Source of the DNA: Sedimentisphaerales bacterium
GTDB lineage: Bacteria > Planctomycetota > Phycisphaerae > Sedimentisphaerales > SM23-30
Length of the DNA: 64,000 nt
Direction of reading: 5' to 3'
Assembly (NCBI GenBank): GCA_028281535.1
Contig: JANQJS010000063.1
Coordinates: 1 to 64,000, forward strand
Shown here: positions 7,701-42,201 of the stretch, one piece after another
How the letters are laid out: every line of letters starts with the position of its first letter
How positions within the stretch are numbered: the first letter of the stretch is position 1
Program-made: the position numbers and the translations under genes
The notes under the pieces: generated by a model
Told to the model about the DNA's origin: nothing
Seen by the model: only the letters and a program-made list of their open reading frames with translations
Databases searched by the model: none

Positions 7701-10700
7701 TTAGATAACTTCAGTACGATCAGTGATAACTTCACCATTGATGGAAGATGAGCTGAATCGTCCGAAGATCGTTGCATCAGAGACACTACCAAGGAACTGA
7801 CTGTTCGTTGCATTACCTGCGATGAATAGTGAGTTCGTGGTGCCTTGTACGAAGACATTACTAATGCTTGATGCATTGAAGTTCATGACATTGCCAAGAA
7901 CATCAAAGTTACGGATGCGACCAGATGACAAGTAGTCAACGTTACCACCGACAAAACCTTTTTGCAGTGATTCCGCTTTGATTAAATCGGCATCACCAGC
8001 GATGGCCACACCGCGAAGTGCAGAAGTCGTTTCGACTGAATCCAGGCTACCTTCAACAATCAAGTTTTTGACTTTCAGCTTGCCATGAACATCAACATGA
8101 CCAACGTTAGCACCGTTAGATCCGACAACACCATTCTTAGAAGCTTTCATAATGGTTTTGAAACCTGCTTCATCAACAGTTCCACCTGCAGCAGCCAAAG
8201 CAGCACTACCTTTTCCTGTCGTACTGGTGACATCAATATCAGTGACTTTACCGAAGATTGAACTCCAGGCAGCTGAAACATTTTTGCTACCTTTGAGGTA
8301 TAGACTCTGAGTAGTTGCACCATTGTATTCCACAGTTTGCAGTGAGCTGGTTTTGCTCAATGTACCACTGTCAGTGATACGATCAGTAGGATCATTGATA
8401 TCACCATCTGTGAACAGGTCACCGAAGTTGTTTGCTGTCAAGTCTGCGGTTGAACCATCGATGTCACCATCGTCTGTTCCAAACTCACGAACGTTGATCA
8501 AATCAACATCACCCAAGACTGGTGGGTCTGAATCGTTATTAGAAGAAGTTGTACCTTCAATTGACAAGTCACCAGCCCAGTCACCCCAGATGTTGATTTC
8601 AGTCACATCACCAACGATGTCAACTTCAGCACCTGCGTCATCTAGACCAACAATATCAAGCTGTTCAATAATGTAGTCAGTACTATCATTGTTATCAATA
8701 ATACCCGCAGCACCACCACTGACTTCAACTGAAATCGAGTCTTGGCTGAATGGGTTATTTTCAGAAACGATGGTTTCACCATCAATGGCTTTCAAGCCGA
8801 TGTTCACATCAACATCAGACAGACCAGTGATTGCTCCACCTGCGTTTGGAACGATCATACGGCTAATGAAACCAGCGACAGTCATGTTGCCAATGTTTTC
8901 AGATCCGATTGGAACTTGAAGACCACCAAAGTCACCGAAGATATCGAAGTCACCAGCAATATCACCAGCAAGAACATAAATCGTTCCAGTCGCTGTTCCG
9001 GTTGGTTCTGGAGTACCTAAGCCATCAATCACAACCGTTGGTGCAACAGTGCGGAAGTCAAGTGTACTTGAAACGTCACCCGCTTCGACCAGCACACCAC
9101 CAGTAAACCATGATGGAATACCAGCAGCAACAGCAGCACCATAAGCAGCTGAGATCGTAGCGTTGTCGATGTCACCACCAACAGCACCCGTTCCTTCAGA
9201 TTCCCAGGTACCAGACCAGTCCAAGCTAGAAGCAATTGAACCGAATGAGGTTGCTGTATGAACGGTACCAGAAACTGAACCATTCAGAGATACAACATAA
9301 CCAAGGCTGTCGATATCAGCAGTAACGCTTACATTACCAGAGGCAATGATGTTACCAGCGGTATCAGCATTAATACTTACAGTCAGATCTGTATTTTGAT
9401 CATCACCAATTTCTGCATCAAGTGCAGTTGGTGCTGTATCATCAATCACATCAGCAGTGAAGGCAGTTCCTTCATCAGCATTTGATGCTGCAAGGAAGTT
9501 CGCAGCCAATGTGTTAGAATCTAATGCGGTTGCATTGTCTGCAGCAACGATGTTGCCCAGTGTACCTGAAACAGTAACACCGAAACCATCACCATCTTCT
9601 TGAAGAAGAAGGATTTCATCAACACTAACAGGTGCACCATCACTTGCTGTCGCAGAAACAGTATCACTATCAGCAAAGATAATCAATTGATCGACGGTCA
9701 AGCCGTTTGCATCCAAGCCGGTATCAGCATCAATGTCGATGACTGCTACAGCACCAGGTGTTACTGTGTAAACACGAGGTGTGGTGTCAAGTGAGTCTGA
9801 ACGATCATTAATCGTTACACCAGTTGCACCAGCAGCAACACCAAAGAGCCAGTCACCACTGAAATCGTTACCAGTAATCGCACCAACTGTGCCACCGGTT
9901 AAGATATCAGCAGTCACATCACCTGTTGTTGCTGTGATAGCACCTAAAGTGCCACCAGCCTGGATCAAACCAGAACCGCCAACATTGACTTGAGCTGTAA
10001 CAGTACCAATGTTACCGCCAGCACTCAGTAAACCAGTAAAGCTACCGATTTGAGTCACGGTTCCATCTACATTGGTGACAGAGTTACCAATGGTCACAGC
10101 ACCAATATTGGTTGCAGCGATGATTGAACCCGTTAGGCTACCAGCAATATCAACAGCACCCGTTGAACCGGTTGAACCAGCTACACCAGCGTCGTTGAAG
10201 ATTTGAATGGTACCAGCCATATCGTTACCGGTTCCCGTGAAAGTTCCATCGGTACCAACGGTGATACTATCAATATCATAAGCGTTCAAACCACCTGTTG
10301 AAGTAATAGCACCTGTCACGGTGAAAGCAGCAATATCGTGACCTTCAATGACATAAGTCAGGTCACCATTAATGGTCACTGCACCTGTTACAATCGCGTT
10401 ATCTTCTTGTGAGATTTCAGTGATAACACCACCAGTAACTTCAAGTTCGAACGCGTTGACACCACCACCAGCTTCAAGTTCAATTGGAGTGATGAAAGCA
10501 CCAGCACCATCGCCATGCGTGACACTGATGTCACCACCGGTACTTGCAGGACCGACAGGAACAATGTAATCACCATCAGCAGGAACACCAATCGTGACCG
10601 TTCCTGCATTTGGATGCAAGAAGGCAGAAGTCATATTAGCGGCAGTTGGGTTATCAATACCCAGTACGCTACCTGCTGAGAACAAGCTTACGTTTGTTGT

Positions 10701-13700
10701 AATGACTGGAACAGTCACATCACCTTCAACAATCAAGCTAACCAACGTTCCGTCAGGACCAAGGTTGATACCAGAACCAGTGACGTTACCTTCAACAAGG
10801 ACAGTGCCAAGATCGTTGGTATCGTTTGTGACTGAGTCAGCATCAAAGTCTAGGTTGGTTAATCCGAAACCAGCACCATCAAGAATGGTGGTTGTGCCAT
10901 CAGCATCGGTATCGGTTGTTGTTAAGCTAATGTCAGCTGAAGCAGCTAAAGCAGCTGAGCCAGCATTATCCCAGTTATCGATTGTAATGGCGATGGTTTT
11001 ACCAGCACCATTGAAGACATAGTTATAAATTGGACCAGCGGTTGCATCGAATAAGTACGTTGCACCGTTAACAGCCCAGGTTGTCACAGGAGAACTTGTG
11101 GTTCCTAATGTAGCGGTTGTGTTACCAGTAATGGTTGCACCAGCCACATTATCAACATCACCACCAGCCGTAATGGTTGCTGAGTTAGCACCCGTTAGTG
11201 TTGTATTGGCATCAGCACCATCTGTAACGGTTACGGTATCGATATTACCAATTGTTGCGGTAATTGTACCAGCAATTGGTGTATCAATTGAGCTAACCGT
11301 TCCAATGTTACCACTGGAAGATGTGATGGTTGTGCTACCACCAGCACCGATACCAGCACCCGTTGCATCACCCGTTGCATTAACGGCGGTAATGTTTCCT
11401 TCAGCAGTAACATCGGCATCAACAGCAACACCAGCAACAGTTCCGATGGTTCCGGTTGTTGCGGTCACAGTTAAATCTGTAGCACCATCACCCAATGTAC
11501 CATTCAATGAGGTCACACTGGTAATGTTGGTATTTGCTGTAATGCTTGTTGTACCATTACCAGCACCGATGTTACCAACGGCTGTCACAGAACCAACGCT
11601 ACCATTGGTTGAAGTAATCGTGGTTGATTGAGCAGCATCAGCACCGATTGAGCCACCAACAAAGACGCTGGTGATGTCACCGGTTGAAGCAGTAATTGCT
11701 TCGTTGGCTGTCATGGCATTACCGAGGTTACCAGCAATGTTAACGTTGCCAATGCTCGTTGCTGTGATACTACCGTTAGCATTACCATTAACGATAATGT
11801 CTGCGATCGTACCTGTTGCAGTAATATCAGCACCATCATTAATGTTACCACCAGCACCCAAACCTGAACTACCGATCAGGATGTCACCAGCAGAACCATT
11901 AATGGTTAAGTTGCCACCCAGGTTACCACGAAGAATCAGGTCACCCATCAATCCGCCACCTGTGACGTTAATGGTCAGTGCACCACTGGTTGAACCGAAT
12001 TCAAGTGTTTCGCCAACAGCAGGAGCTACGGTACCCGATACGCCACCTTCAACAGTTACTGCGGAGAATGTCACGTTGGTAAAGCTACCAAGTGCACCAC
12101 TACCTTCAAAGATAATGGATCCGACAGTTACAGAGGAGGTCGCTGTAAATGTATTCACTAAGATTGGAGCTGCGTTCACATCAACATCAGTGTCGTTGAA
12201 TTGTTGTGCAGCACCTGTTTCCTGTTTTGAAGTAATGTAAATGTCAGGTGTCGTACCTGTGGTTGAATCAGCCAGAGAGGTGATATCAATTTGAGGACTA
12301 CCACCATTGGCATTACCATCAAAGACAACGTTTGCCGTCACACCTGTATCAACCGTTGTGGTTGACCCAGTTTCAAAAGCCCAGACAGCGTAGCTGACAC
12401 CATCATGAATGAAGGTTGCTAGCGGTGAGCTTGAAGTTGCGGCAGACGCAGTTACTGCAGCGTCAACACTTGCAGCACCTGCATCAATTAAATCAATATC
12501 AGCATCAGCTGTGATTGTACCGTTGATGTCATCACCAACTGCACCACCACTGCGAACCAAATCAATGTTTTGACCGGTAATGGTTGAGTTAATTCCACCA
12601 CCAGCAACAACACTGGTCACATTACCAGAGCTGTCTGAATCGCTATCAGCAGTAATCGCACCACCAGTGATGCTACCGGTTACTGCAACACTGAGAACAT
12701 CATCTTCAGCTGAGATGGTACCAGCGGTAATGTTACCACCAACAACAACTGAAGTAATGTCACCTGTTCCAGCGGTCACATTTGCGGTCAAGTTACCAGA
12801 GGTTGCTGTCACCGTACCAGAAATTAAACCAGCTGTTGCGACAATGTTACCATCAATGTTTGTACCAGCGGTAATGTTAGCAGCAATGTCACCTGCGGTT
12901 GCGGTAATAGCTCCATCAATGTCTGTACCAGCTGAAATGGTTGCACCAGAAGCGATGCCACCAGCTGTAACGGTTAGACCGCCATCGATGTCACCAGCAT
13001 CTGCTTTGAAGACACCGGTTGCAGCCACACCACCAGCATCAATGGTAAATAGACCTGTGAAGTTACCTGTTATTGCTTGAACAGTACCAGCTAAACCAAC
13101 CGTATCAATATCGATAGTGCTAGCAAAGTTGCCCGTTGTAGCAACCAAGCTACCAGCAGCTAAGATACCATCATCAATTTGAATGGCACCGGTGAAACCT
13201 GTTGCGGCAGTAATGGCTGCGGCCAGGTTACCATCAGCTGTGATAGCACCGATAGAACCTGCACTGGTAATCGCTGCGGTGATGTTACCACCTGCATCGA
13301 TTGAACCAATGTTACCGGTATTGGTTGAAATCGCTGCGGCGATGTTACCTTTACTGGTTCCAGATTCATCAGCATCCACCGTAATGGCACCTGTAATACT
13401 GTCAGCACTAATGGTTGCAGCAGAAGTGATATCACCGTTGGTAGATGTAATTGAAGCAATCGCACCACCCGTTGATTGGATGGTACCTGTAATATCAGTT
13501 GCAGCAGACACAGCACCAATGTTACCGTCAGATACGACAGAACCATCGATGGTGGTTGTTGCTGCAGTCACGGTACCGATTGTACCGTTACCTGTTCCTT
13601 TATTTGCAGTAAATGATGCACCAGAAAGAATACCACCGGCAGATGCACCAATGTTACCAATGGAAGCACCAGTGACAACCAGTGTACCAGTTGTGTCACC

Positions 13701-16490
13701 TAAGTTACCTGTGGTTGCGGTTACGTTACCAACGTCACCCGTATCTGCGGTACCACCATTATTAGCAGTAATCACAACACCACCAACACCACCGATTCCG
13801 GTGCTTGCTGTAATGTTGCCCACATCATCATTACCTTGAATGGTCACTGTACCACCAGTTGCATCAGAGGTGATGCTACCGGTTACACCTAAGGTTCCGA
13901 TAGAACCAAGAGCCGCACTTCCTTGTGCGTCAAATAAGATGTCACCAGCGACTGATGTACCGTCCGTTTGAATGGTAGCTGAAGAAGTTGAGTTTCCAAT
14001 GCTTTCACCTTGGAAGATCACATCACCACCATCATCGGTTGAAGCGACGGTAATACCAGCTAAAGTTAGGGCACCCAGTGCACCGTTGGTTGAACCAATG
14101 GTAATCGCACCGTTAACAGCAACACCTGTGTTGCTGATTAAGCCTGTTGCTGTGAAAGCAGCCATATCACCAGTACCCGTTCCGATACCGATGCTAATGT
14201 CACTATCATTGGTACCACTATTGGTAATAGCACCGGTTGTGGTTGTACCTGCGATACTACCGTTGGTTCCGGTGGTTACCAGGATGTCACCACCACCAGT
14301 ACCACTTGCGGTCAAAGCACCCAAGCTAACAGCACCGGTGAAACCTGTTGTACCACCATTAATGGTAGCTCCACCTGTTCCACTGGCTGTGATACCTGTG
14401 AAAGCTGTGCCACCGACAACACCAATACTGGTTCCGGCAGTCACGCTAAATGCACCTGTACTTGAAATGGTTAATAAACCATCAAGATCTAAAGTGCCAA
14501 TGGTTGTTGTAGAAGTCAGGCTGAAATCACCGCCACCAGACATGGTGTTTGCGGTGCTATCACCTAAGTCAACATTACCGATGACATTACCTTGAATGGT
14601 CACATCAGCATTGGCTGAGGTTGCCAGCATCAAGATAGAATCACCTAAGCTGAAGTTACCCATATCACCAGTGGTTGTACCAATGGTGACTGAACCAACT
14701 ACGTCAGCTTCTTGATCAATGTCAGTTGTAATCGTCACGGTACTTGAGAAATCACCAGTACCTGTTGGAGCAATAGTAATATCTGCATCACCTGATGAAT
14801 CCATATCGATGTCAGCAATAACAACAGCACCAGCGAATCCACCATTGGTGGTTGTACCCACTGTAATGTTACCAGAACCAGAACCGCTTGTGGTAATGGC
14901 ACCCAGTGTCACAGCACCGGTATAACCCGTTGTACCACCATCAATCAAGATATCACCAGACCCCGCAGAGGTAATGGCTGGGACGTTACCGCCACCAATC
15001 ACACCGATTGAGGTTGTTGCATCAATGGTAATTCCACCAGCGGAACTTGCTGCGGTTTGTAATGCTGCGGTTGAATCAATCGTACCAATCGTGGTACCTT
15101 GAATGATAACGTCACCTGTTGCGTTGGTACCATTGATTGTAATACCAGCAAGAGAAACGTTACCTAAAGCAGCACCGCTGTTACCAAATGTCATGGTACC
15201 AGGAGCGTTAACTGCAGTATTTTGAATTAAGCCAGCCGTAAAAGTCCCCATGGCACCCGTACCAGCCGTTGCAATGGTCAAGTCAGCATCAACGGTTGCA
15301 CTATTGGTCACAGTACCAACCGTTAAATTACCCATGCTACCATTTGTAGATGTTGTAATACTAATATCACCACCACCACTCTGAATGATGTTACCTGTTC
15401 CAACCGTGCTGCCGAAACCAGAATCACCACCATTGAAGGTGAAGTTACCAGTGCTACTTAATGTAAGACCACCGAATCCAAGGGCACCCGTCACACCATC
15501 ATCGGTTGCGCCGGTATCAACATCAATTGAGATATTACCAGCACCACCAACGGTCGTTAAACCAGCAACATCCCATGCACCACCGACACCTTCGGTCGTG
15601 ACTGTGAAGTTACCAGCAGCGGTCGTGATGACACCTTCCATATCAAGTGAAGCAATACCTGAACCTGCATCATTGTCAAAAGTCCAAGTGATACCGTTGG
15701 CACCAGGTAAAATATCACCATGCCAATCGATCGCACCAATTTGACCAGCGTCAATTAACGAATCGGTTGAAGTACCACCAATCAGGTCAACATCACCGTC
15801 GGTTGACGTCACGGTACCAATTGCACCTGTACCATTTGTGACGATGTGAGTTTCTACCGTCAGGCCAGTAAAGTTAGTAGCACCAAAGGTAATGTTACCA
15901 ATGGCCTGGTTGGCTGAACCGGTGTACGTCTCACCTGTATTGGCAGGAGCGGCTGAAATATTGGCACCAGCTGAGGTGAAGACAGTCGCCGTATCAGAAA
16001 GACCGTCAACGGTAAAGTCTTGATCATCATCACCAGCAGCATCTTCCGTTGTCGTAATACCAGTACCAATGATCAGATCAAGCTCAGTTGTACCGGCATC
16101 CAAACCACTCAGGTCGATGTTTGCAATATTTAAGTTAGTTACAAGGAAAATGGTCGCCGCACCAGCACCGCCAGTATCCTGAACGGTAATATTCAGCGTA
16201 AATGTATCCGTCGCACCACCATCGCTTAAGTCAGCGACCGTAACACTGTCGATACCCGTACTGGTTGCACCCAGAGCGATAAAACCGTCAGTAGCATTAA
16301 AGGTATTGTCGCCGGTGACATCGTATGCAGTATAATCACCGGGATTCAACACCACTGCAGCAGGAGCAATACGTTCTTCCAGTTCTTCAACTTTCAGACG
16401 CTGCTGATACTGCTGAATGCGATTGGCAAGCAGGGCAGATTTGGAATACCTGCTCGCGTTTCTAAATAATTTGCGAAGCCCATTGGCCAT
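7701..16490 (-). CDS. Giant (2929 aa) Gly/Thr/Ala/Ser/Ile/Asp/Asn-rich repetitive surface or secreted protein, probably a parallel beta-helix / adhesin-like repeat protein. There is no N-terminal signal peptide.
   Basis: Single uninterrupted ORF with a GGAGA RBS 7 nt before the ATG. It carries hundreds of short degenerate repeats of the type ITATTGNIGSIDAGGNITAA. The N-terminus MANGLRKLFRNASRYSKSALLANRIQQYQQRLKVEELEERIAPAAVV is charged and not Sec-like. Strong codon bias creates many spurious antisense ORFs. Confidence 0.85.
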   Translation of the reverse strand: MANGLRKLFRNASRYSKSALLANRIQQYQQRLKVEELEERIAPAAVVLNPGDYTAYDVTGDNTFNATDGFIALGATSTGIDSVTVADLSDGGATDTFTLNITVQDTGGAGAATIFLVTNLNIANIDLSGLDAGTTELDLIIGTGITTTEDAAGDDDQDFTVDGLSDTATVFTSAGANISAAPANTGETYTGSANQAIGNITFGATNFTGLTVETHIVTNGTGAIGTVTSTDGDVDLIGGTSTDSLIDAGQIGAIDWHGDILPGANGITWTFDNDAGSGIASLDMEGVITTAAGNFTVTTEGVGGAWDVAGLTTVGGAGNISIDVDTGATDDGVTGALGFGGLTLSSTGNFTFNGGDSGFGSTVGTGNIIQSGGGDISITTSTNGSMGNLTVGTVTNSATVDADLTIATAGTGAMGTFTAGLIQNTAVNAPGTMTFGNSGAALGNVSLAGITINGTNATGDVIIQGTTIGTIDSTAALQTAASSAGGITIDATTSIGVIGGGNVPAITSAGSGDILIDGGTTGYTGAVTLGAITTSGSGSGNITVGTTTNGGFAGAVVIADIDMDSSGDADITIAPTGTGDFSSTVTITTDIDQEADVVGSVTIGTTTGDMGNFSLGDSILMLATSANADVTIQGNVIGNVDLGDSTANTMSGGGDFSLTSTTTIGTLDLDGLLTISSTGAFSVTAGTSIGVVGGTAFTGITASGTGGATINGGTTGFTGAVSLGALTASGTGGGDILVTTGTNGSIAGTTTTGAITNSGTNDSDISIGIGTGTGDMAAFTATGLISNTGVAVNGAITIGSTNGALGALTLAGITVASTDDGGDVIFQGESIGNSTSSATIQTDGTSVAGDILFDAQGSAALGSIGTLGVTGSITSDATGGTVTIQGNDDVGNITASTGIGGVGGVVITANNGGTADTGDVGNVTATTGNLGDTTGTLVVTGASIGNIGASAGGILSGASFTANKGTGNGTIGTVTAATTTIDGSVVSDGNIGAVSAATDITGTIQSTGGAIASITSTNGDITSAATISADSITGAITVDADESGTSKGNIAAAISTNTGNIGSIDAGGNITAAITSAGSIGAITADGNLAAAITAATGFTGAIQIDDGILAAGSLVATTGNFASTIDIDTVGLAGTVQAITGNFTGLFTIDAGGVAATGVFKADAGDIDGGLTVTAGGIASGATISAGTDIDGAITATAGDIAANITAGTNIDGNIVATAGLISGTVTATSGNLTANVTAGTGDITSVVVGGNITAGTISAEDDVLSVAVTGSITGGAITADSDSDSSGNVTSVVAGGGINSTITGQNIDLVRSGGAVGDDINGTITADADIDLIDAGAASVDAAVTASAATSSSPLATFIHDGVSYAVWAFETGSTTTVDTGVTANVVFDGNANGGSPQIDITSLADSTTGTTPDIYITSKQETGAAQQFNDTDVDVNAAPILVNTFTATSSVTVGSIIFEGSGALGSFTNVTFSAVTVEGGVSGTVAPAVGETLEFGSTSGALTINVTGGGLMGDLILRGNLGGNLTINGSAGDILIGSSGLGAGGNINDGADITATGTIADIIVNGNANGSITATSIGNVNIAGNLGNAMTANEAITASTGDITSVFVGGSIGADAAQSTTITSTNGSVGSVTAVGNIGAGNGTTSITANTNITSVTSLNGTLGDGATDLTVTATTGTIGTVAGVAVDADVTAEGNITAVNATGDATGAGIGAGGSTTITSSSGNIGTVSSIDTPIAGTITATIGNIDTVTVTDGADANTTLTGANSATITAGGDVDNVAGATITGNTTATLGTTSSPVTTWAVNGATYLFDATAGPIYNYVFNGAGKTIAITIDNWDNAGSAALAASADISLTTTDTDADGTTTILDGAGFGLTNLDFDADSVTNDTNDLGTVLVEGNVTGSGINLGPDGTLVSLIVEGDVTVPVITTNVSLFSAGSVLGIDNPTAANMTSAFLHPNAGTVTIGVPADGDYIVPVGPASTGGDISVTHGDGAGAFITPIELEAGGGVNAFELEVTGGVITEISQEDNAIVTGAVTINGDLTYVIEGHDIAAFTVTGAITSTGGLNAYDIDSITVGTDGTFTGTGNDMAGTIQIFNDAGVAGSTGSTGAVDIAGSLTGSIIAATNIGAVTIGNSVTNVDGTVTQIGSFTGLLSAGGNIGTVTAQVNVGGSGLIQAGGTLGAITATTGDVTADILTGGTVGAITGNDFSGDWLFGVAAGATGVTINDRSDSLDTTPRVYTVTPGAVAVIDIDADTGLDANGLTVDQLIIFADSDTVSATASDGAPVSVDEILLLQEDGDGFGVTVSGTLGNIVAADNATALDSNTLAANFLAASNADEGTAFTADVIDDTAPTALDAEIGDDQNTDLTVSINADTAGNIIASGNVSVTADIDSLGYVVSLNGSVSGTVHTATSFGSIASSLDWSGTWESEGTGAVGGDIDNATISAAYGAAVAAGIPSWFTGGVLVEAGDVSSTLDFRTVAPTVVIDGLGTPEPTGTATGTIYVLAGDIAGDFDIFGDFGGLQVPIGSENIGNMTVAGFISRMIVPNAGGAITGLSDVDVNIGLKAIDGETIVSENNPFSQDSISVEVSGGAAGIIDNNDSTDYIIEQLDIVGLDDAGAEVDIVGDVTEINIWGDWAGDLSIEGTTSSNNDSDPPVLGDVDLINVREFGTDDGDIDGSTADLTANNFGDLFTDGDINDPTDRITDSGTLSKTSSLQTVEYNGATTQSLYLKGSKNVSAAWSSIFGKVTDIDVTSTTGKGSAALAAAGGTVDEAGFKTIMKASKNGVVGSNGANVGHVDVHGKLKVKNLIVEGSLDSVETTSALRGVAIAGDADLIKAESLQKGFVGGNVDYLSSGRIRNFDVLGNVMNFNASSISNVFVQGTTNSLFIAGNATNSQFLGSVSDATIFGRFSSSSINGEVITDRTEVI

Positions 16491-25115: not shown

Positions 25116-25148
25116 ATAAAAGTAAGCAGGAACATAGCCCCGCTTACT
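25113..25148 (-). terminator. Hairpin terminator between convergent lpxI and rtcB
   Basis: AGTAAGC...GCTTACT stem, followed by TTTTATTT on the minus strand immediately after the rtcB stop. Confidence 0.55.
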
Positions 25149-26545
25149 CAATCTTCGGGACGTTCGCCAGCAGGGGCCATTTTTACGATCCTTGGATCGA
25201 AGCGTGCGATAGGGTCTACCAGATCGGATTGGGATTTCATGACCATGTCGATATCTTTGTAGGCCATGGGTACTTCGTCTAATCCGGCGGACATTAATTT
25301 GACATTTCGTTCATCCAAGAATTTTTTGGCTTCGTGCCAAGTAAAGTTTTCTTTGGCTTTTTTACGGCTCATTTTTCGTCCTGCACCATGTGATGCGGAA
25401 TTCAATGAGGCTTCATTCCCCTTGCCTCGTACAATGTAGCCGCTTGTGCCCATTGACCCTGGGATAATACCCAACACGCCATCGCCGGCAGGTGTAGCAC
25501 CTTTACGATGCACGATCAGTTCTTTGCCATCATGGATTTCTTTCCAGGCGAAGTTGTGATGGTTTTCGATATCCAGTAACACATCGACGCCTAAATTTTT
25601 GGCGATATGTTTATGGATCAATGCATGGTTTGCCGCGGCATACTGGCCCATTAGCTCCATAGCCTGCCAATATTCCTGACCATCAGCAGAATCCAAATCT
25701 AACCATGCCAAATGCATCAAATCTTTGGGTAGCTCTGGATGTTTTTGGATCGCCAATTTACTATAATGATCGGCAATAGCCGCGCCGGTTCCACGGCTGC
25801 CGCTATGGCTTAACAGTGCCAGGTAGGTTCCTGCTTCAAGGCCAAGGTCATCCTTCTCTAAAGTCAATTCGCCATACTCAACAAAGTGATTACCACTGCC
25901 ACTGGTGCCTAATTGACTCCAGGCTTTGTCTTTGAGGTTGCGCGTTAAATCGGTAAACGTCCAATCGTCATCCATGACATCATGCTGGCGACGTTTTTTG
26001 AAACTGGCACCGATGCCAAAACGTGTCTCGGTTTCGATAGCGTTTTCCAGTTTACCGGTTTGGCCTTCCAAAGCAGACAGCGGCATATCCAAGACCGTCA
26101 TTTTCATGCGGCAGGCAATATCAACACCAACGGCAAATGGAATCACCGCATTGTCGGTTCCCAATACCCCTCCAATCGGTAAACCATAACCCACATGCGC
26201 ATCAGGCATCAATGCACCAGCAACAGAGACAGGTAATTTGCATGCATTTTCCATCTGTTCGATGGATTGCGGTTCAAAATCGCCGCCCCACTGCTGGTAG
26301 GGTGCTGGCTCTGTGCGATGTTCATAACGCGCACGAGCCTCAACTGAAGCAAGTAAAACGTTTGCTAACGGTGCAAAGATCTTATCATTTTTATATTGCT
26401 CAGGATTTTCTGCTAAGCTACGAATGGTATGGCGAACCTGAGCTTTTGGCAATCGCTCCTTACCTGCAGCCGCGACAACCTCGCGTGCTACAACCATAAC
26501 GTTACCTTTAGGAATGCCTAAATTTAATAATTCACGTGTTTTCAT
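25148..26545 (-). CDS. rtcB: RNA-splicing ligase RtcB
   Basis: 465 aa with conserved RtcB blocks (metal-binding His/Cys positions; C-terminal ...ASHGAGRKMSRKKAKE). Confidence 0.9.
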   Translation of the reverse strand: MKTRELLNLGIPKGNVMVVAREVVAAAGKERLPKAQVRHTIRSLAENPEQYKNDKIFAPLANVLLASVEARARYEHRTEPAPYQQWGGDFEPQSIEQMENACKLPVSVAGALMPDAHVGYGLPIGGVLGTDNAVIPFAVGVDIACRMKMTVLDMPLSALEGQTGKLENAIETETRFGIGASFKKRRQHDVMDDDWTFTDLTRNLKDKAWSQLGTSGSGNHFVEYGELTLEKDDLGLEAGTYLALLSHSGSRGTGAAIADHYSKLAIQKHPELPKDLMHLAWLDLDSADGQEYWQAMELMGQYAAANHALIHKHIAKNLGVDVLLDIENHHNFAWKEIHDGKELIVHRKGATPAGDGVLGIIPGSMGTSGYIVRGKGNEASLNSASHGAGRKMSRKKAKENFTWHEAKKFLDERNVKLMSAGLDEVPMAYKDIDMVMKSQSDLVDPIARFDPRIVKMAPAGERPED

Positions 26546-26664
26546 TTGATTTCCTATTCTATACTAATTCTGACCTTTTAAAAATACTAAATGCATGGAT
26601 TCCTGTGCGTTCGGCGATGCTCAGTGCAGGCTCTTCGCAAGGTTGTCAAACGGCCGACCTTTCT

Positions 26665-27684
26665 TTATTTTGAGAATTTCACCTCAAATATGTTTTTACT
26701 TATGTGTTTCACATCGATAGTTACATCAAGAAACTTTTTAATCACCTCAATATTTGTTAGACTATGTTGTGTTAATGCAACGGTTCGAAAGACGCCTTCG
26801 CCAGCTAATGCTAACGGCAGCAATAATTGATCAGATAAGTATGGCCCTACCGGAACACTTTGATCTAAATACTCTTTTATTTCATCGATCACAGGATAAA
26901 GCACTTTCGGTATCGAAACATTTTTCTGACCGAAAGCAGTAAATATTTCTGTCAGTAATTCGCTAGCGATCTCGAAGGTAATGACATTACCCGGACCTGG
27001 CGAATTATCAAATTCATGTACCTGTAGCTCCTGACCAAACCACCCAAGTTTATCACGTACTTTTTTTAGTTCCTTTTCGGCAATTTCAACGGGTAATTGT
27101 GCAACGCTTGCAGTTGCCAGCTTTGCTGTGATTTTACCACGATCCAATAGCTCAAGGCCTGAAAGCTTCTTTACGGGCTTGACATTTACTAGTAGTTGTC
27201 CACCACCTGCTGGTGCAAAACCAGGTGCAAGCAATTTAGTTTCGATTGTTGAGCCCATTTGATTGATCAAAGGAATATAGGCTTTCTCTAGAAATTCATA
27301 AGGTGGCGCATATGGATTATGCGTACCACCTTCTAACGAAATCGTCGATTCACCTTCTGCCAAAAGCAGTGCAGGTAAAACCGTTTGCAATACCAATGTT
27401 GTACTACCCGCCGTACCAATCGCAAAGTGGAATTTGCCGGCATATAAACCGCTTGGTTTAAACAGCAAACGCTGCGAGCCAATCGCATTACCTTCAACCT
27501 TTGCACACCCCACATCAACTGCGGCATTCACTGCCGTCAAATGTTGTCGCATTAAACCGGGCTTAGGCCGACCGGAACGAATGTTGATAATCTCAAAAGG
27601 CTGCTGAGTTATCAAAGATAACGCCAGCGAACTACGTAATATCTGTCCGCCGCCTTCACCAAAAGATCCATCTATTTGTATCAT
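26665..27684 (-). CDS. rtcA: RNA 3'-terminal phosphate cyclase RtcA
   Basis: 339 aa. The N-terminus MIQIDGSFGEGGGQILRSSLALSLI is typical of RtcA, and the gene overlaps the upstream gene by 4 nt. Confidence 0.9.
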   Translation of the reverse strand: MIQIDGSFGEGGGQILRSSLALSLITQQPFEIINIRSGRPKPGLMRQHLTAVNAAVDVGCAKVEGNAIGSQRLLFKPSGLYAGKFHFAIGTAGSTTLVLQTVLPALLLAEGESTISLEGGTHNPYAPPYEFLEKAYIPLINQMGSTIETKLLAPGFAPAGGGQLLVNVKPVKKLSGLELLDRGKITAKLATASVAQLPVEIAEKELKKVRDKLGWFGQELQVHEFDNSPGPGNVITFEIASELLTEIFTAFGQKNVSIPKVLYPVIDEIKEYLDQSVPVGPYLSDQLLLPLALAGEGVFRTVALTQHSLTNIEVIKKFLDVTIDVKHISKNIFEVKFSK

Positions 27685-28226
27685 TGTTTCATCTCGATTA
27701 ATTGATTAAATATCCTGGTGATATTTCGTGCATCATCGATCCCTCGATGGTGCGTACCTTCCAGGTTCATTTTTAAAAGTTTCAATGCCTGGCCCATACC
27801 TAATCGCGTGACTCTCATGACATCAGAAAATAATTGTTTGATGTTCAAATGTTCACCTTGATAAGGCTCAATACCATGCAGTTTGCAATCACGTTTTAAT
27901 TGACGCAAATCATAACCACCCCAAGAAGCTAACATAAATGGGCCATCTTGATATGCCCAATTCATAAATGCATTAAAGCTCTCAATAAAGCCAGGAGCTT
28001 TATCCACCTGGGATTGTGTGATCGTTGTCAATTGTTTACAAAAATCTGAAAGCTCTGGATTCAACTTCGGTTTTATAAACGTTTGAAACTCATCAGACAA
28101 AATCTGCCCATGACGGTAACGCACCGCACCGATCTCGATAATCTCGCTGGTATAAGTATCTTTATCTTGCCAGCAAGTTGCTTCAAGATCAACGATAATA
28201 AATTGTTTATGTTTTAAATCTTCCAT
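27681..28226 (-). CDS. DEDDh-family 3'-5' exonuclease (DnaQ/ERI-1-like), first gene of the rtcA-rtcB operon
   Basis: 181 aa. Exo I motif FIIVDLEAT (D,E), Exo II WGGYD, Exo III HHRGIDDA (the H of DEDDh). The stop overlaps the rtcA start. Confidence 0.75.
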   Translation of the reverse strand: MEDLKHKQFIIVDLEATCWQDKDTYTSEIIEIGAVRYRHGQILSDEFQTFIKPKLNPELSDFCKQLTTITQSQVDKAPGFIESFNAFMNWAYQDGPFMLASWGGYDLRQLKRDCKLHGIEPYQGEHLNIKQLFSDVMRVTRLGMGQALKLLKMNLEGTHHRGIDDARNITRIFNQLIEMKQ

Positions 28227-28288: not shown

Positions 28289-28421
28289 AAGGCACTTTTT
28301 AACGACGCGACCTTTTATTCAGTAACCCGCTCCCGTTGTTCGCTACTTTGTTCCTAGTTTTCTATTCCATTTTGGCCTTTGACAGACAAAGCTGTCACAC
28401 AATTATCCACAATACAACGAA

Positions 28422-28496
28422 TAGCCCTGATAGGATTCGAACCTACAACCATCGGTTTCTAAAACCGGCGCCTCTTGCCAATCGGGCTACAGAGCC
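28422..28496 (-). tRNA. tRNA-like gene of 75 nt that folds as a class-I cloverleaf with apparent anticodon UAG. This is anomalous, because bacterial tRNA-Leu is class II. CCA is not encoded.
   Basis: Manual fold of GGCTCTG-TA-GCC..-D loop-..GGC-G-CCGGT-TTTAGAA-ACCGA-TGGTT-GTAGG-TTCGAAT-CCTAT-CAGGGCT-A. The acceptor has 5 Watson-Crick pairs plus 2 G-U pairs, and the T-loop GGTTCGAATCC is canonical. Confidence 0.5.
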
Positions 28497-28627
28497 AAAA
28501 TGATTAAAAATACTGCCGCGAGTTAACGTGGGTAACCTTTCACGCACCTCACGGCAGCCATGTGAGGTATCATTATCTCTCTAAACATTTGCGACCACCC
28601 GACATCCCTTCCTGGTCGCGTATTGTT

Positions 28628-28667
28628 AAAAAATTATATGATGGGAAGGTAAGGGTGGCACCTTCCC
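28628..28667 (-). terminator. Rho-independent terminator after the SPFH gene
   Basis: GGGAAGG...CCTTCCC hairpin followed by ATAATTTTTT on the minus strand. Confidence 0.6.
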
Positions 28668-28686
28668 ATCGTGCGGAATCAACCTT

Positions 28687-40690: not shown

Positions 40691-42124
40691 TTAATTTAAA
40701 TTATTAATTGGGAAACTATTCATATATTCTTCAGGTTTTTTCGGATCGAACTCTTTACCCATAATCACATGTTTACGATAGGTTTTTCCATTCTTACTGT
40801 AACCAAGTTCTTCGATAAGTTCATCACACTCGCTAGCAAGATAGACTTTTTCAGCCACTTTGTGATAATCAAATTCACCTTCAACATGTTTCCAACGTTT
40901 CATCTGGGTCAGAATCCAAACCGCCATGGAGTGCCATGGGAATGGATCAAAATCAATACGATCAGGTACATTCTGAATGCCACCCAAACCATCCGCAAAT
41001 TTACCTGTCAGAACTTGCTGCAAGACAATCTCCGGTTGATTCAAATAATTCTTAGGAGCAATCGCCTTTGCAATCGCTTTTCGATTCTTTGGATCTGAAG
41101 AATAATGAGTCGCATCGACAATGGATTTGAACAAGGCCAGGAAAGTATTTGGATATGTTTTCGTAAACTCTTCCGAGATCGCAAATGCACAACATGGATG
41201 ACCATCCCATATTTCTTTTGTTAACTTATAGATAAATCCAACATTTTCATATATCGCACGCTGGTTAAATGGATCGGGTGCCAAATAACCATCCACATTT
41301 TCTGCTTTCAGGTTAGCAACCATCTCTGGTGGAGGCACAACACGAATTTGAACATCTTTATCAGGATGCACGCCGCCTTCTGCCAGATAATAACGCAGCA
41401 GGTAATTATGCATGGAATACCTAAAGGGAACACAAAAACGAAACCCCTTCATATCCTTTGGACCTTTAACGCCTTTGTGTTTTTTGTGAAGCGTGATTGC
41501 TTGACCATTAATATTTTCAACCGCAGGCATAAAGAAAGGAACCTTCTTAGAGCCAGCCCCCAATGAAATCGATAGTGGCATCGGACTAAGCATATGTGCG
41601 GCATCCACATCTTTGTTAATGGCCCAGTCTCTGACCATCGCCCAACCAGACGCACGCCGCACTTTGGCATTTAAGCCATGCTTTTTGTAAAAGCCCATGG
41701 GCTCAGCCATGATAATCGGCGTGGCACAAGTAATAGGTATAAACCCAATTGATAAGTCCTTCTTCTCAATATTTTTAACCGGATCTGCTGCCAAACTCTT
41801 AGCCATGTCCATCGGAAAGAAACTAGCAATCATGGCTGCGGCAGCACCTTTACCTACCGTACTGATAAATTTACGACGATGAATCGGATTAGGAAAAATG
41901 GCATTCATCACTGCATTTTCAACAACCTGATCCATAATCTCTTCTGTATTGGGACCCGATTGAGAAGACGCTTTTTCAGCAACACTTTCATGCTCACAAC
42001 TTTCATTATGCACATGATCTTTTGTACATTTGCTATGGTCATGCGAAAATTCCAGTCCTTTAAAGTCACTGGATTGATGCGATTCAAAATCTTTTTTAAC
42101 TTCTTTATCGTGACAGTCAGACAT
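40691..42124 (-). CDS. ABC transporter periplasmic substrate-binding protein (NrtA/CynA-like) with a twin-arginine signal. The annotated start adds a ~60-aa His/Cys/Asp-rich N-terminal extension, and an internal start is possible.
   Basis: 477 aa. HRRKFISTVGKGAAAAMIASFF is a Tat-type motif, but it starts only at residue ~80. The upstream stretch MSDCHDKEVKKDFESHQSSDFKGLEFSHDHSKCTKDHVHNESCEHE resembles a metal-binding tail. A GGAGG RBS precedes the first ATG. Confidence 0.75.
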   Translation of the reverse strand: MSDCHDKEVKKDFESHQSSDFKGLEFSHDHSKCTKDHVHNESCEHESVAEKASSQSGPNTEEIMDQVVENAVMNAIFPNPIHRRKFISTVGKGAAAAMIASFFPMDMAKSLAADPVKNIEKKDLSIGFIPITCATPIIMAEPMGFYKKHGLNAKVRRASGWAMVRDWAINKDVDAAHMLSPMPLSISLGAGSKKVPFFMPAVENINGQAITLHKKHKGVKGPKDMKGFRFCVPFRYSMHNYLLRYYLAEGGVHPDKDVQIRVVPPPEMVANLKAENVDGYLAPDPFNQRAIYENVGFIYKLTKEIWDGHPCCAFAISEEFTKTYPNTFLALFKSIVDATHYSSDPKNRKAIAKAIAPKNYLNQPEIVLQQVLTGKFADGLGGIQNVPDRIDFDPFPWHSMAVWILTQMKRWKHVEGEFDYHKVAEKVYLASECDELIEELGYSKNGKTYRKHVIMGKEFDPKKPEEYMNSFPINNLN

Positions 42125-42185: not shown

Positions 42186-42201
42186 TGCAAATGAAGTGCC
42201 A
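42186..42201 (-). promoter_or_regulatory. Consensus sigma-54 promoter (TGGCAC-N5-TTGCA) for the cynA-like/cynB-like/cynS/ATPase operon
   Basis: The minus strand reads TGGCAC TTCAT TTGCA, about 60 nt upstream of the ATG at 42124. Confidence 0.7.

Follow-up and report, generated by a model that had tools for sequence, protein, structure and literature searches.

An ERI-1/KapD-type exonuclease gene in an RtcR-linked RNA-repair cluster with tRNA-like elements from a planctomycete

The RNA ligase RtcB seals RNA whose 3' end carries a phosphate or a 2',3'-cyclic phosphate to a 5'-OH end, and the groups that RtcA cyclises are 3'- or 2'-phosphates (PMC3854526, Das & Shuman). Documented accessories of rtc operons are Ro60 with Y RNAs (PMC3854526, PMC4201824), RlaP (PMC12776372) and, in Pseudomonas aeruginosa, an SPFH protein (PMC13086221); the canonical operons couple rtcBA to a 3'-5' exonucleolytic machine via Ro60 and Y RNA. 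In Salmonella, tRNA 5' halves with cyclic-phosphate ends are the proposed ligand of the CARF domain of the regulator RtcR, fragments of tRNA-Leu(UAG) being the most prominent and its 5' halves the best candidate, and both the fragments and the expression of the operon increase when the 3'-5' exonuclease PNPase is lost. The authors of that work note that a phosphorylated 3' end is closed to PNPase, so that a different enzyme has to convert it to a 3'-OH beforehand (PMC7790460). Two questions about the Rtc system are open, namely the fate of cleaved RNAs that are not re-ligated and the way in which the RtcR signal ends. Here we describe an rtc cluster in which a gene for an exonuclease of the ERI-1/KapD type directly precedes rtcA and rtcB. 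It lies in a stretch of 64,000 nucleotides, hereafter the window, corresponding to positions 1 to 64,000 (forward strand) of contig JANQJS010000063.1 (assembly GCA_028281535.1) from a Sedimentisphaerales bacterium (Planctomycetota), and its core comprises three genes.

27681..28226, minus strand: DEDDh 3'-5' exonuclease of the ERI-1/3'hExo/KapD type, nuclease domain only, 181 amino acids (PF00929, E=1.5e-21)
26665..27684, minus strand: rtcA, RNA 3'-terminal phosphate cyclase, 339 amino acids (NF003246, 408 bits, cutoff 352)
25148..26545, minus strand: rtcB, RNA ligase, 465 amino acids, with an N-terminal extension of about 95 amino acids (PF01139, 293 bits)

The list of open reading frames, Pfam and NCBIfam agree on three co-oriented minus-strand genes between 25148 and 28226, as had been proposed in an original prediction made from the DNA letters alone. 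The same prediction held that the 181-residue exonuclease gene overlaps the start of rtcA by 4 nucleotides, and the junction indeed reads ...AAA CAA TGA, the ATG of rtcA lying inside the shared ATGA. This overlap is genuine, because the N terminus of RtcA (MIQIDGSFGEGGGQILR) agrees with the family consensus. The rtcA and rtcB genes are adjacent and co-oriented with a gap of 119 nucleotides, the arrangement by which RtcR-regulated rtc operons are recognised, and the closest relatives of all three proteins come from metagenome-assembled genomes of Planctomycetota and "Deltaproteobacteria".

The predicted DnaQ/ERI-1-like DEDDh identity of the first protein withstood a motif check, since all five catalytic residues (D13, E15, D106, H160 and D165) are present and are invariant in an alignment of the window protein with 21 homologues. 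D13 and E15 form the DxE of motif Exo I, and the Exo II aspartate D106 and the Exo III H-x4-D (H160 and D165, "h" subtype) align with the ERI1 residues of structure 1w0h. In a sequence comparison with solved structures, human 3'hExo/ERI1 (1w0h, E=3e-21), ERI3, ERI2 and CRN-4 came out on top. The AlphaFold (AF2) model has a predicted local distance difference test score (pLDDT) of 93.7 and superposes on 3'hExo (1w0h/4qoz, Foldseek) with a template-modelling (TM) score of 0.90-0.92, a root-mean-square deviation of 1.6-1.7 Å and about 29% identity; its top 16 Foldseek matches in the Protein Data Bank belong to the same four proteins (query-normalised TMq 0.85-0.92) and have the RNase H-like alpha/beta fold. 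As the nuclease domain fills residues 10-173 of the 181, there is no room for an N-terminal SAP domain, a layout that agrees with that of bacterial KapD-like proteins. The best NCBIfam match is the KapD equivalog NF005838, with 85.5 bits for a cutoff of 169, and by the NCBI criterion the protein is thus KapD-like without being a KapD orthologue. The family is very large, with 3883 of the scored candidates at E<=1e-5, and a collection of 5.8 billion proteins holds no homologue above 55% identity. PADLOC defence models returned only generic DEDDh matches, and none for RtcB or for the SPFH and ORF117 proteins described below.

The genomic context of this exonuclease was surveyed in 80 species-representative genome loci with the best homologues (43-53% identity), in which rtc genes were scored within 10 kb, and in the contigs that encode seven of its nearest proteins in the large collection. 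Two of the 80 genome loci have rtc genes. The top match, from a Phycisphaerae metagenome-assembled genome (L002), shows the order rtcB-orf-orf-exonuclease-rtcA, with an RtcA 67% identical to that of the window over the 84 residues present. The other, from a Bacteroidota metagenome-assembled genome (L079), comprises a WYL regulator, Ro60, YrlA-like and tRNA-Lys-like elements, an SPFH gene, an S24-like gene and the exonuclease, with RtcB and RlaP encoded 7 kb beyond the latter. As for the contigs, P0002 (L162) has the exonuclease as the first gene after a divergent rtcR, followed by orf109 and rtcB, and a sigma54-like site of the GG-N10-GC type lies 50 nucleotides upstream of the exonuclease; P0010 (L167) shows an rtcA fragment, the exonuclease and then rtcB with a 4-nucleotide overlap; P0003 (L163) has rtcA 3.5 kb downstream of the exonuclease; and P0025 (L170) reads rtcA-TPR-NADAR-exonuclease, with genes for RlaP and for a PolyA_pol/HD protein of the CCA-adding type nearby on the opposite strand. 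The contigs of P0005, P0006 and P0047 hold no rtc genes. In L170 (2965-3495 and 6501-9364) the exonuclease gene overlaps the NADAR-domain gene and is followed by an AAA (MoxR-like) gene and a DUF2201 gene, so that the locus resembles a larger RNA-repair island.

Ranked by similarity, rtc linkage is thus found for 5 of the 8 nearest homologues with readable context versus 1 of 79 more distant ones. Neighbour-joining places the window protein in a 10-member group that contains six of the seven rtc-linked sequences and is recovered by two distance measures; Fisher's test returns p=2.6e-6 for this division, which was picked after the data were seen. The exact group has a weak bootstrap of 13/100, and we do not retain a single supported rtc-linked clade, the enrichment being better stated by similarity rank. 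On these comparisons, the association between exonuclease and rtc genes is real, lineage-restricted and realised in several gene orders, a diversity that favours function over shared ancestry of one arrangement.

A second census was centred on rtcA and covered the 80 metagenome loci with the closest RtcA relatives (49-58% identity), 65 of which have at least 600 nucleotides upstream of rtcA. None of the 80 carries an exonuclease homologue, including the 10 loci in which an SPFH gene of the window type stands directly upstream of rtcA. The neighbourhood check that accompanied the original prediction therefore came out in two parts: linkage among the nearest homologues is non-random, and generality across the closest rtcA loci is lacking. 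This absence is what would be expected of a passenger gene, inserted in particular lineages and functionally unconnected with RNA repair, and so is the fact that 78 of the 80 genome loci of the exonuclease family are not near rtc genes; moreover, the exonuclease and a tRNA-like element follow a terminator-like hairpin in the window and together resemble an inserted block. On the other hand, rtc linkage occurs in at least five different gene arrangements among the nearest homologues, the codons of the exonuclease gene overlap those of rtcA in the window and of rtcB in L167, and in L162 the gene stands directly behind rtcR. We consider a mere passenger very unlikely.

Hydrolysis of the last phosphodiester bond by a DEDDh enzyme leaves a 3'-OH end. 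This chemistry bears on the mechanism first proposed for the cluster, in which the exonuclease trims damaged 3' ends into termini for cyclisation by RtcA and ligation by RtcB. Its close linkage and start/stop overlap with rtcA, and its recurrence next to rtcA or rtcB in relatives, are in line with such a partnership. However, trimming removes the very end group that both enzymes need, and its 3'-OH product is a substrate of neither RtcB, which requires a 3'-phosphate or 2',3'-cyclic phosphate, nor RtcA, which requires a 3'- or 2'-phosphate (PMC3854526). Furthermore, no gene for a 3'-kinase was recognised among the annotated open reading frames of the cluster, and trimming deletes nucleotides, so that the ligated product would be shortened. 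That the enzyme makes ligatable ends is for these reasons highly improbable.

The properties of B. subtilis KapD, the nearest characterised bacterial relative, point elsewhere, as do the Salmonella findings and the coupling of canonical operons to Ro60 and Y RNA described above. KapD releases pCp from pCp-labelled RNA and can therefore remove a nucleotide bearing a 3'-phosphate, and its activity on RNA with a 5'-monophosphate exceeds that on 5'-OH RNA by a factor of 10-100 (PMC11736430); a 5'-monophosphate is the exact 5' end of a tRNA 5' half. We tentatively favour, as a serious possibility still short of probable, a role of the exonuclease as a decay or trimming arm that would clear unrepaired fragments with a 3'-phosphate and a 5'-monophosphate and would damp the RtcR signal. 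A small, mostly planctomycete-like group of lineages would have recruited an active exoribonuclease of the ERI-1/KapD type into repair clusters presumably controlled by RtcR. The enzyme would shorten cleaved tRNAs or tRNA-like fragments with a 5'-monophosphate from their 3' ends, taking off 3'-phosphorylated nucleotides as well, and the resulting 3'-OH ends would be finished by general exonucleases. Fragments that RtcB fails to re-join would be cleared in this way, and the pool of 3'-phosphorylated tRNA 5' halves, the RtcR-activating ligand, would be lowered. The exonuclease would then play the part that the Rsr/Y-RNA/PNPase arm has in canonical operons, or that of a nuclease which ends a signal.

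Whether RtcR could govern this gene depends on the wider cluster, whose protein-coding genes and candidate control elements are as follows.

32107..33696, plus strand: rtcR, sigma54-dependent activator with a CARF domain, divergent from the cluster (NF038308, 777 bits, cutoff 650)
31933..31947, minus strand: sigma54-like site TGGCACAGGGATTGT (TGGCAC-N5-TTGT), about 160 nucleotides from the rtcR start (pattern search, 1 mismatch)
31510..31863, minus strand: ORF117, 117 amino acids, first coding sequence past the sigma54-like site (list of open reading frames)
31001..31038, minus strand: strong hairpin resembling an intrinsic terminator, with a U7 tail (fold -20.7 kcal/mol, z=-5.4)
28687..29991, minus strand: SPFH/Band-7 protein, 434 amino acids (Pfam Band_7, E=4.5e-29)
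28640..28670, minus strand: terminator-like hairpin of 12 bp with a weak U tract, next after the SPFH gene (scan; fold -19.8 kcal/mol, z=-6.1)
25120..25149, minus strand: terminator-like hairpin closing the cluster (scan; fold -16.4 kcal/mol, z=-5.2)

The RtcR protein also carries the Pfam RtcR and Sigma54_activat domains. Between the rtcR-proximal sigma54-like site and the exonuclease lie ORF117, four tRNA or tRNA-like genes and the SPFH gene, and because these precede it on the same strand the claim that the exonuclease is the first gene of the operon is not supported here; among coding genes it leads no more than the distal block of the cluster. A full design with rtcR divergent from SPFH-rtcA-rtcB is visible in those four of the ten SPFH-type loci of the rtcA census that are long enough for it (L083, L084, L129 and L136), whose SPFH proteins are 54-57% identical to that of the window, and in L083 and L084 a perfect TGGCAC-N5-TTGC occupies the same position relative to rtcR as the sigma54-like site of the window. 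Compared with these loci, the window represents an operon type in which rtcR is divergent from a tRNA-like element, SPFH, rtcA and rtcB, with inserted material, namely ORF117 and extra tRNA-like genes upstream, and a tRNA-Leu-like element and the exonuclease between SPFH and rtcA. Its RtcB is only 35-38% identical to those of the SPFH-type loci and 67-69% identical to those adjoining the exonuclease homologues of L162 and L167. A Ro60 (TROVE) homologue is absent from the window (tblastn) and no RlaP gene was found there; Ro60 is missing from 6 of the 7 exonuclease-rtc loci, whereas 9 of the 15 loci linked to RtcR in the rtcA census have it, a distribution in line with the proposed decay arm. 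Ro60-type loci of that census carry YrlA at the Rfam threshold.

ORF117 has a good ribosome-binding site and no match in Pfam or NCBIfam; a word-based search returned no homologue, and an exhaustive phmmer search found about 50 distant ones of 105-111 amino acids, which form an uncharacterised family. It has no similarity to the 109-residue open reading frame between the exonuclease and rtcB in L162, and we discarded the idea that the two are counterparts. The N-terminal region of the SPFH protein ahead of Band_7 contains internal repeats (tblastn self-match, residues 125-243), and some 290 nucleotides upstream of its gene there is a second, weaker sigma54-like site (TGGCAAGTTGGCAGCA; 30284-30299, minus strand), in which the GG-N10-GC spacing is correct. 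For the two stable hairpins inside the cluster (31001-31038 and 28640-28670), a role in attenuation, in RNA processing or in RNA stabilisation is conceivable, as is a function as genuine ends of the transcript. Elsewhere in the window, a perfect TGGCAC-N5-TTGC at 42187-42201 (minus strand), just upstream of a gene for an NMT1-like substrate-binding protein (40691-42124), indicates that the host probably uses canonical sigma54 promoters, and a 2929-residue open reading frame (7701-16490, minus strand) has no Pfam domain at E<=1e-5.

Several of these observations weigh against a clearing role under RtcR control. About 3.7 kb separate the exonuclease from the sigma54-like site near rtcR that lies upstream of it, two terminator-like hairpins intervene, and no sigma54-like site was found directly upstream of the gene, so that RtcR control of the exonuclease would here depend on read-through. 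Its absence from all 80 rtcA loci indicates that it is dispensable for the core function of the operon, and the weak bootstrap of the tree group that joins the rtc-linked exonucleases also counts against this reading. Furthermore, with 85.5 bits for a cutoff of 169, the properties of KapD may not transfer to the window enzyme, and KapD was assayed on 3'-phosphate and not on 2',3'-cyclic-phosphate ends (PMC11736430).

The cluster also contains tRNA and tRNA-like elements, listed here together with leader RNAs of the SPFH-type loci.

30803..30876, minus strand: tRNA-Lys(UUU), canonical cloverleaf, no encoded CCA (Rfam tRNA 74.5 bits; ARAGORN)
30456-30529, minus strand: tRNA-like "Phe(AAA)", abutting "Ile(GAU)" (Rfam tRNA 63.5 bits; ARAGORN)
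30382-30457, minus strand: tRNA-like "Ile(GAU)" (ARAGORN; no Rfam tRNA match)
28421..28497, minus strand: tRNA-Leu(UAG)-like element with a short variable arm (Rfam tRNA 52.2 bits; ARAGORN)
L083:2267-2338, L084:2285-2357, L129:2157-2225 and L136:7967-8030: tRNA-like leader RNAs

Canonical decoding tRNAs have a 7-bp acceptor stem, standard arms, an anticodon in use in bacteria and, in the case of Leu, a class-II variable arm. Among the four embedded elements only tRNA-Lys(UUU) looks canonical, each of the other three departing from this pattern in at least one respect: "Phe(AAA)" has a U4.U69 mismatch and A34, and "Ile(GAU)" a 5-bp acceptor stem, a 6-bp anticodon stem and an encoded ACCA. In "Leu(UAG)", 195 nucleotides ahead of the exonuclease start, the D stem has 3 bp and the variable loop is of class I. 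A weak YrlA match spans the abutting pair (30382-30529), and its score of 28.7 bits for an Rfam gathering threshold of 69, together with the lack of Ro60 in the window, led us to reject a YrlA/Y RNA identity for the pair. All four full SPFH-type loci have a tRNA-like leader that separates rtcR from the SPFH gene and has the orientation of the operon, in L083 and L084 about 150 nucleotides after the perfect TGGCAC-N5-TTGC site. The D and T arms of these leaders are invariant, the acceptor stem has only 3 bp, and the anticodon-like stem is kept by compensatory changes around a loop that varies in length and sequence. The short acceptor, the covarying stem and the variable loop make them tRNA mimics and not decoding tRNAs, and no description of such a leader was found in the literature searched. 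Furthermore, arrays of 4-33 tRNA genes lie directly beside rtcB-rtcA, upstream or downstream, in 7 of the 80 rtcA loci (L092, L095, L096, L102, L107, L118 and L119), and an array of at least 8 tRNAs adjoins the exonuclease-rtcB operon of L162 (L162:5860-6527). These arrays include unusually short "tRNA-Leu" genes of 74-78 nucleotides that are about 70-73% identical to the Leu-like element of the window. The tRNA-like genes and leaders are arguably more unusual at this locus than the exonuclease.

Such a setting raises the question of whether the exonuclease is a 3'-end maturation nuclease for the tRNA-like RNAs in or beside the cluster, trimming their 3' trailers back to the stem. These RNAs would sit in long transcripts, mostly without an encoded CCA, and 3'hExo/ERI1 is known to trim 3' overhangs adjoining stem-loops (PMC11736430). 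The position of the Leu-like element just ahead of the exonuclease, with three more tRNA or tRNA-like genes further up, the array beside the L162 operon, and the tRNA-like and YrlA-like elements upstream of SPFH and exonuclease in L079 all fit this role. Nevertheless, the available sequence of 4 of the 7 exonuclease-rtc loci shows no tRNA-like element, and neither the four SPFH-type loci with a leader nor the seven rtcBA loci with a tRNA array have the exonuclease. We also rejected the notion that this exonuclease family is associated with tRNA genes in general, since these occur within 10 kb in 13 of the 80 genome loci, which is about background, and 3'-end maturation is normally done by housekeeping RNases. 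Maturation is in our view rather unlikely to be its function.

The company of the exonuclease in L170 and L079, which both encode RlaP, with a CCA-adding-type PolyA_pol/HD gene in the former, brings in a further explanation, according to which resection to a 3'-OH would allow a CCA-adding enzyme or RlaP to rebuild a damaged 3' end in parallel to ligation by RtcB. RlaP adds nucleotides to RNA 3'-OH ends (PMC12776372), and the capacity of KapD to take off a 3'-phosphorylated terminal nucleotide (PMC11736430) would supply the preceding step. This appears unlikely for the window, where no RlaP was found and no CCA-adding-type gene was noticed near the cluster, no search having been aimed at that family; in addition, a rebuilt 3'-OH end would still be no substrate for RtcB, a difficulty raised by the authors of the RlaP study (PMC12776372).

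A bolder proposal takes the tRNA-like elements and the exonuclease together. The cluster could be a self-contained signalling circuit whose own tRNA-like RNAs, the tRNA-Leu(UAG)-like one among them, serve as baits, are cut by an invading ribotoxin and so yield the CARF ligand, which the exonuclease destroys to end the response; we regard this as decidedly unlikely. By analogy, and with the same low expectation, the exonuclease might then be a counterpart of the ring nucleases of CARF signalling that acts on a linear RNA ligand.

Returning to a clearing role, which we still prefer in the tentative terms given above, its interest lies in the two questions with which we began. RNAs that end in a 3'-phosphate or a cyclic phosphate resist PNPase, a gap named explicitly by Hughes et al. 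2020, and an operon-encoded hydrolytic exonuclease would be a testable candidate for the step that the field flags as missing, because its nearest characterised relative removes a 3'-phosphorylated nucleotide and prefers 5'-monophosphate RNA. No paper that connects RtcB with KapD, ERI-1 or DEDDh exonucleases came up in full-text searching, which did not extend to the leading comparative study of such operons; an exonuclease of the ERI-1/KapD type as an rtc-operon accessory is apparently new, and an earlier description may exist. The tRNA-like leaders of SPFH-type rtc operons devoid of Ro, and the tRNA arrays beside rtcBA, also suggest that mimics of tRNA belong to Rtc systems in general and are no peculiarity of Ro/Y-RNA operons.

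Compared with described systems, the cluster shares with E. coli rtcBA and Salmonella rsr-yrlBA-rtcBA a divergent rtcR (CARF and AAA+), a sigma54-type site, RtcA and RtcB, as well as extra co-oriented genes and interposed RNAs that mimic tRNA (PMC3854526, PMC7790460, PMC4201824). Unlike them, it has the order rtcA-rtcB, no Ro60 and no Y RNA at threshold; in their place stand an SPFH gene, an open reading frame of an orphan family, an ERI-1-like exonuclease and tRNA or tRNA-like genes in the normal, unpermuted domain order. If the exonuclease acts on RNA, the window would share with the Rsr (Ro60)/Y RNA/PNPase machine a 3'-to-5' activity in an rtc-type stress response together with an operon-encoded RNA that mimics tRNA, whereas its nuclease is encoded in the cluster, and is hydrolytic (DEDDh) instead of phosphorolytic, and a Ro ring is absent.

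The protein itself resembles B. subtilis KapD in being a stand-alone ERI-1-type nuclease domain of about 180-200 amino acids with DEDDh residues and no SAP domain, while KapD serves spore-crust assembly and the control of sigK mRNA, with no rtc context (PMC11736430). With human 3'hExo/ERI1 (1w0h, 4qoz) it shares fold and catalytic residues; it differs in being bacterial, operon-encoded and free of the SAP domain that recruits ERI1 to stem-loops. The rtc locus of P. aeruginosa likewise has an SPFH gene, there PaFlo8, between rtcR and the repair enzymes (PMC13086221), and accessory end-modifying enzymes inserted in the operon (PMC13086221, PMC12776372), but its accessory RlaP is a nucleotidyltransferase that adds nucleotides, where that of the window is an exonuclease, which removes them. 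Finally, the trn operon and TrcR regulon of Anabaena also tie extra, partly non-canonical tRNA genes to RtcB and an SPFH/slipin gene in translational stress (PMC8421152, PMC10272220); there, the link consists in co-regulation by a repressor and concerns a long array, whereas in the window a few tRNA or tRNA-like genes lie inside the RtcR-linked cluster itself.

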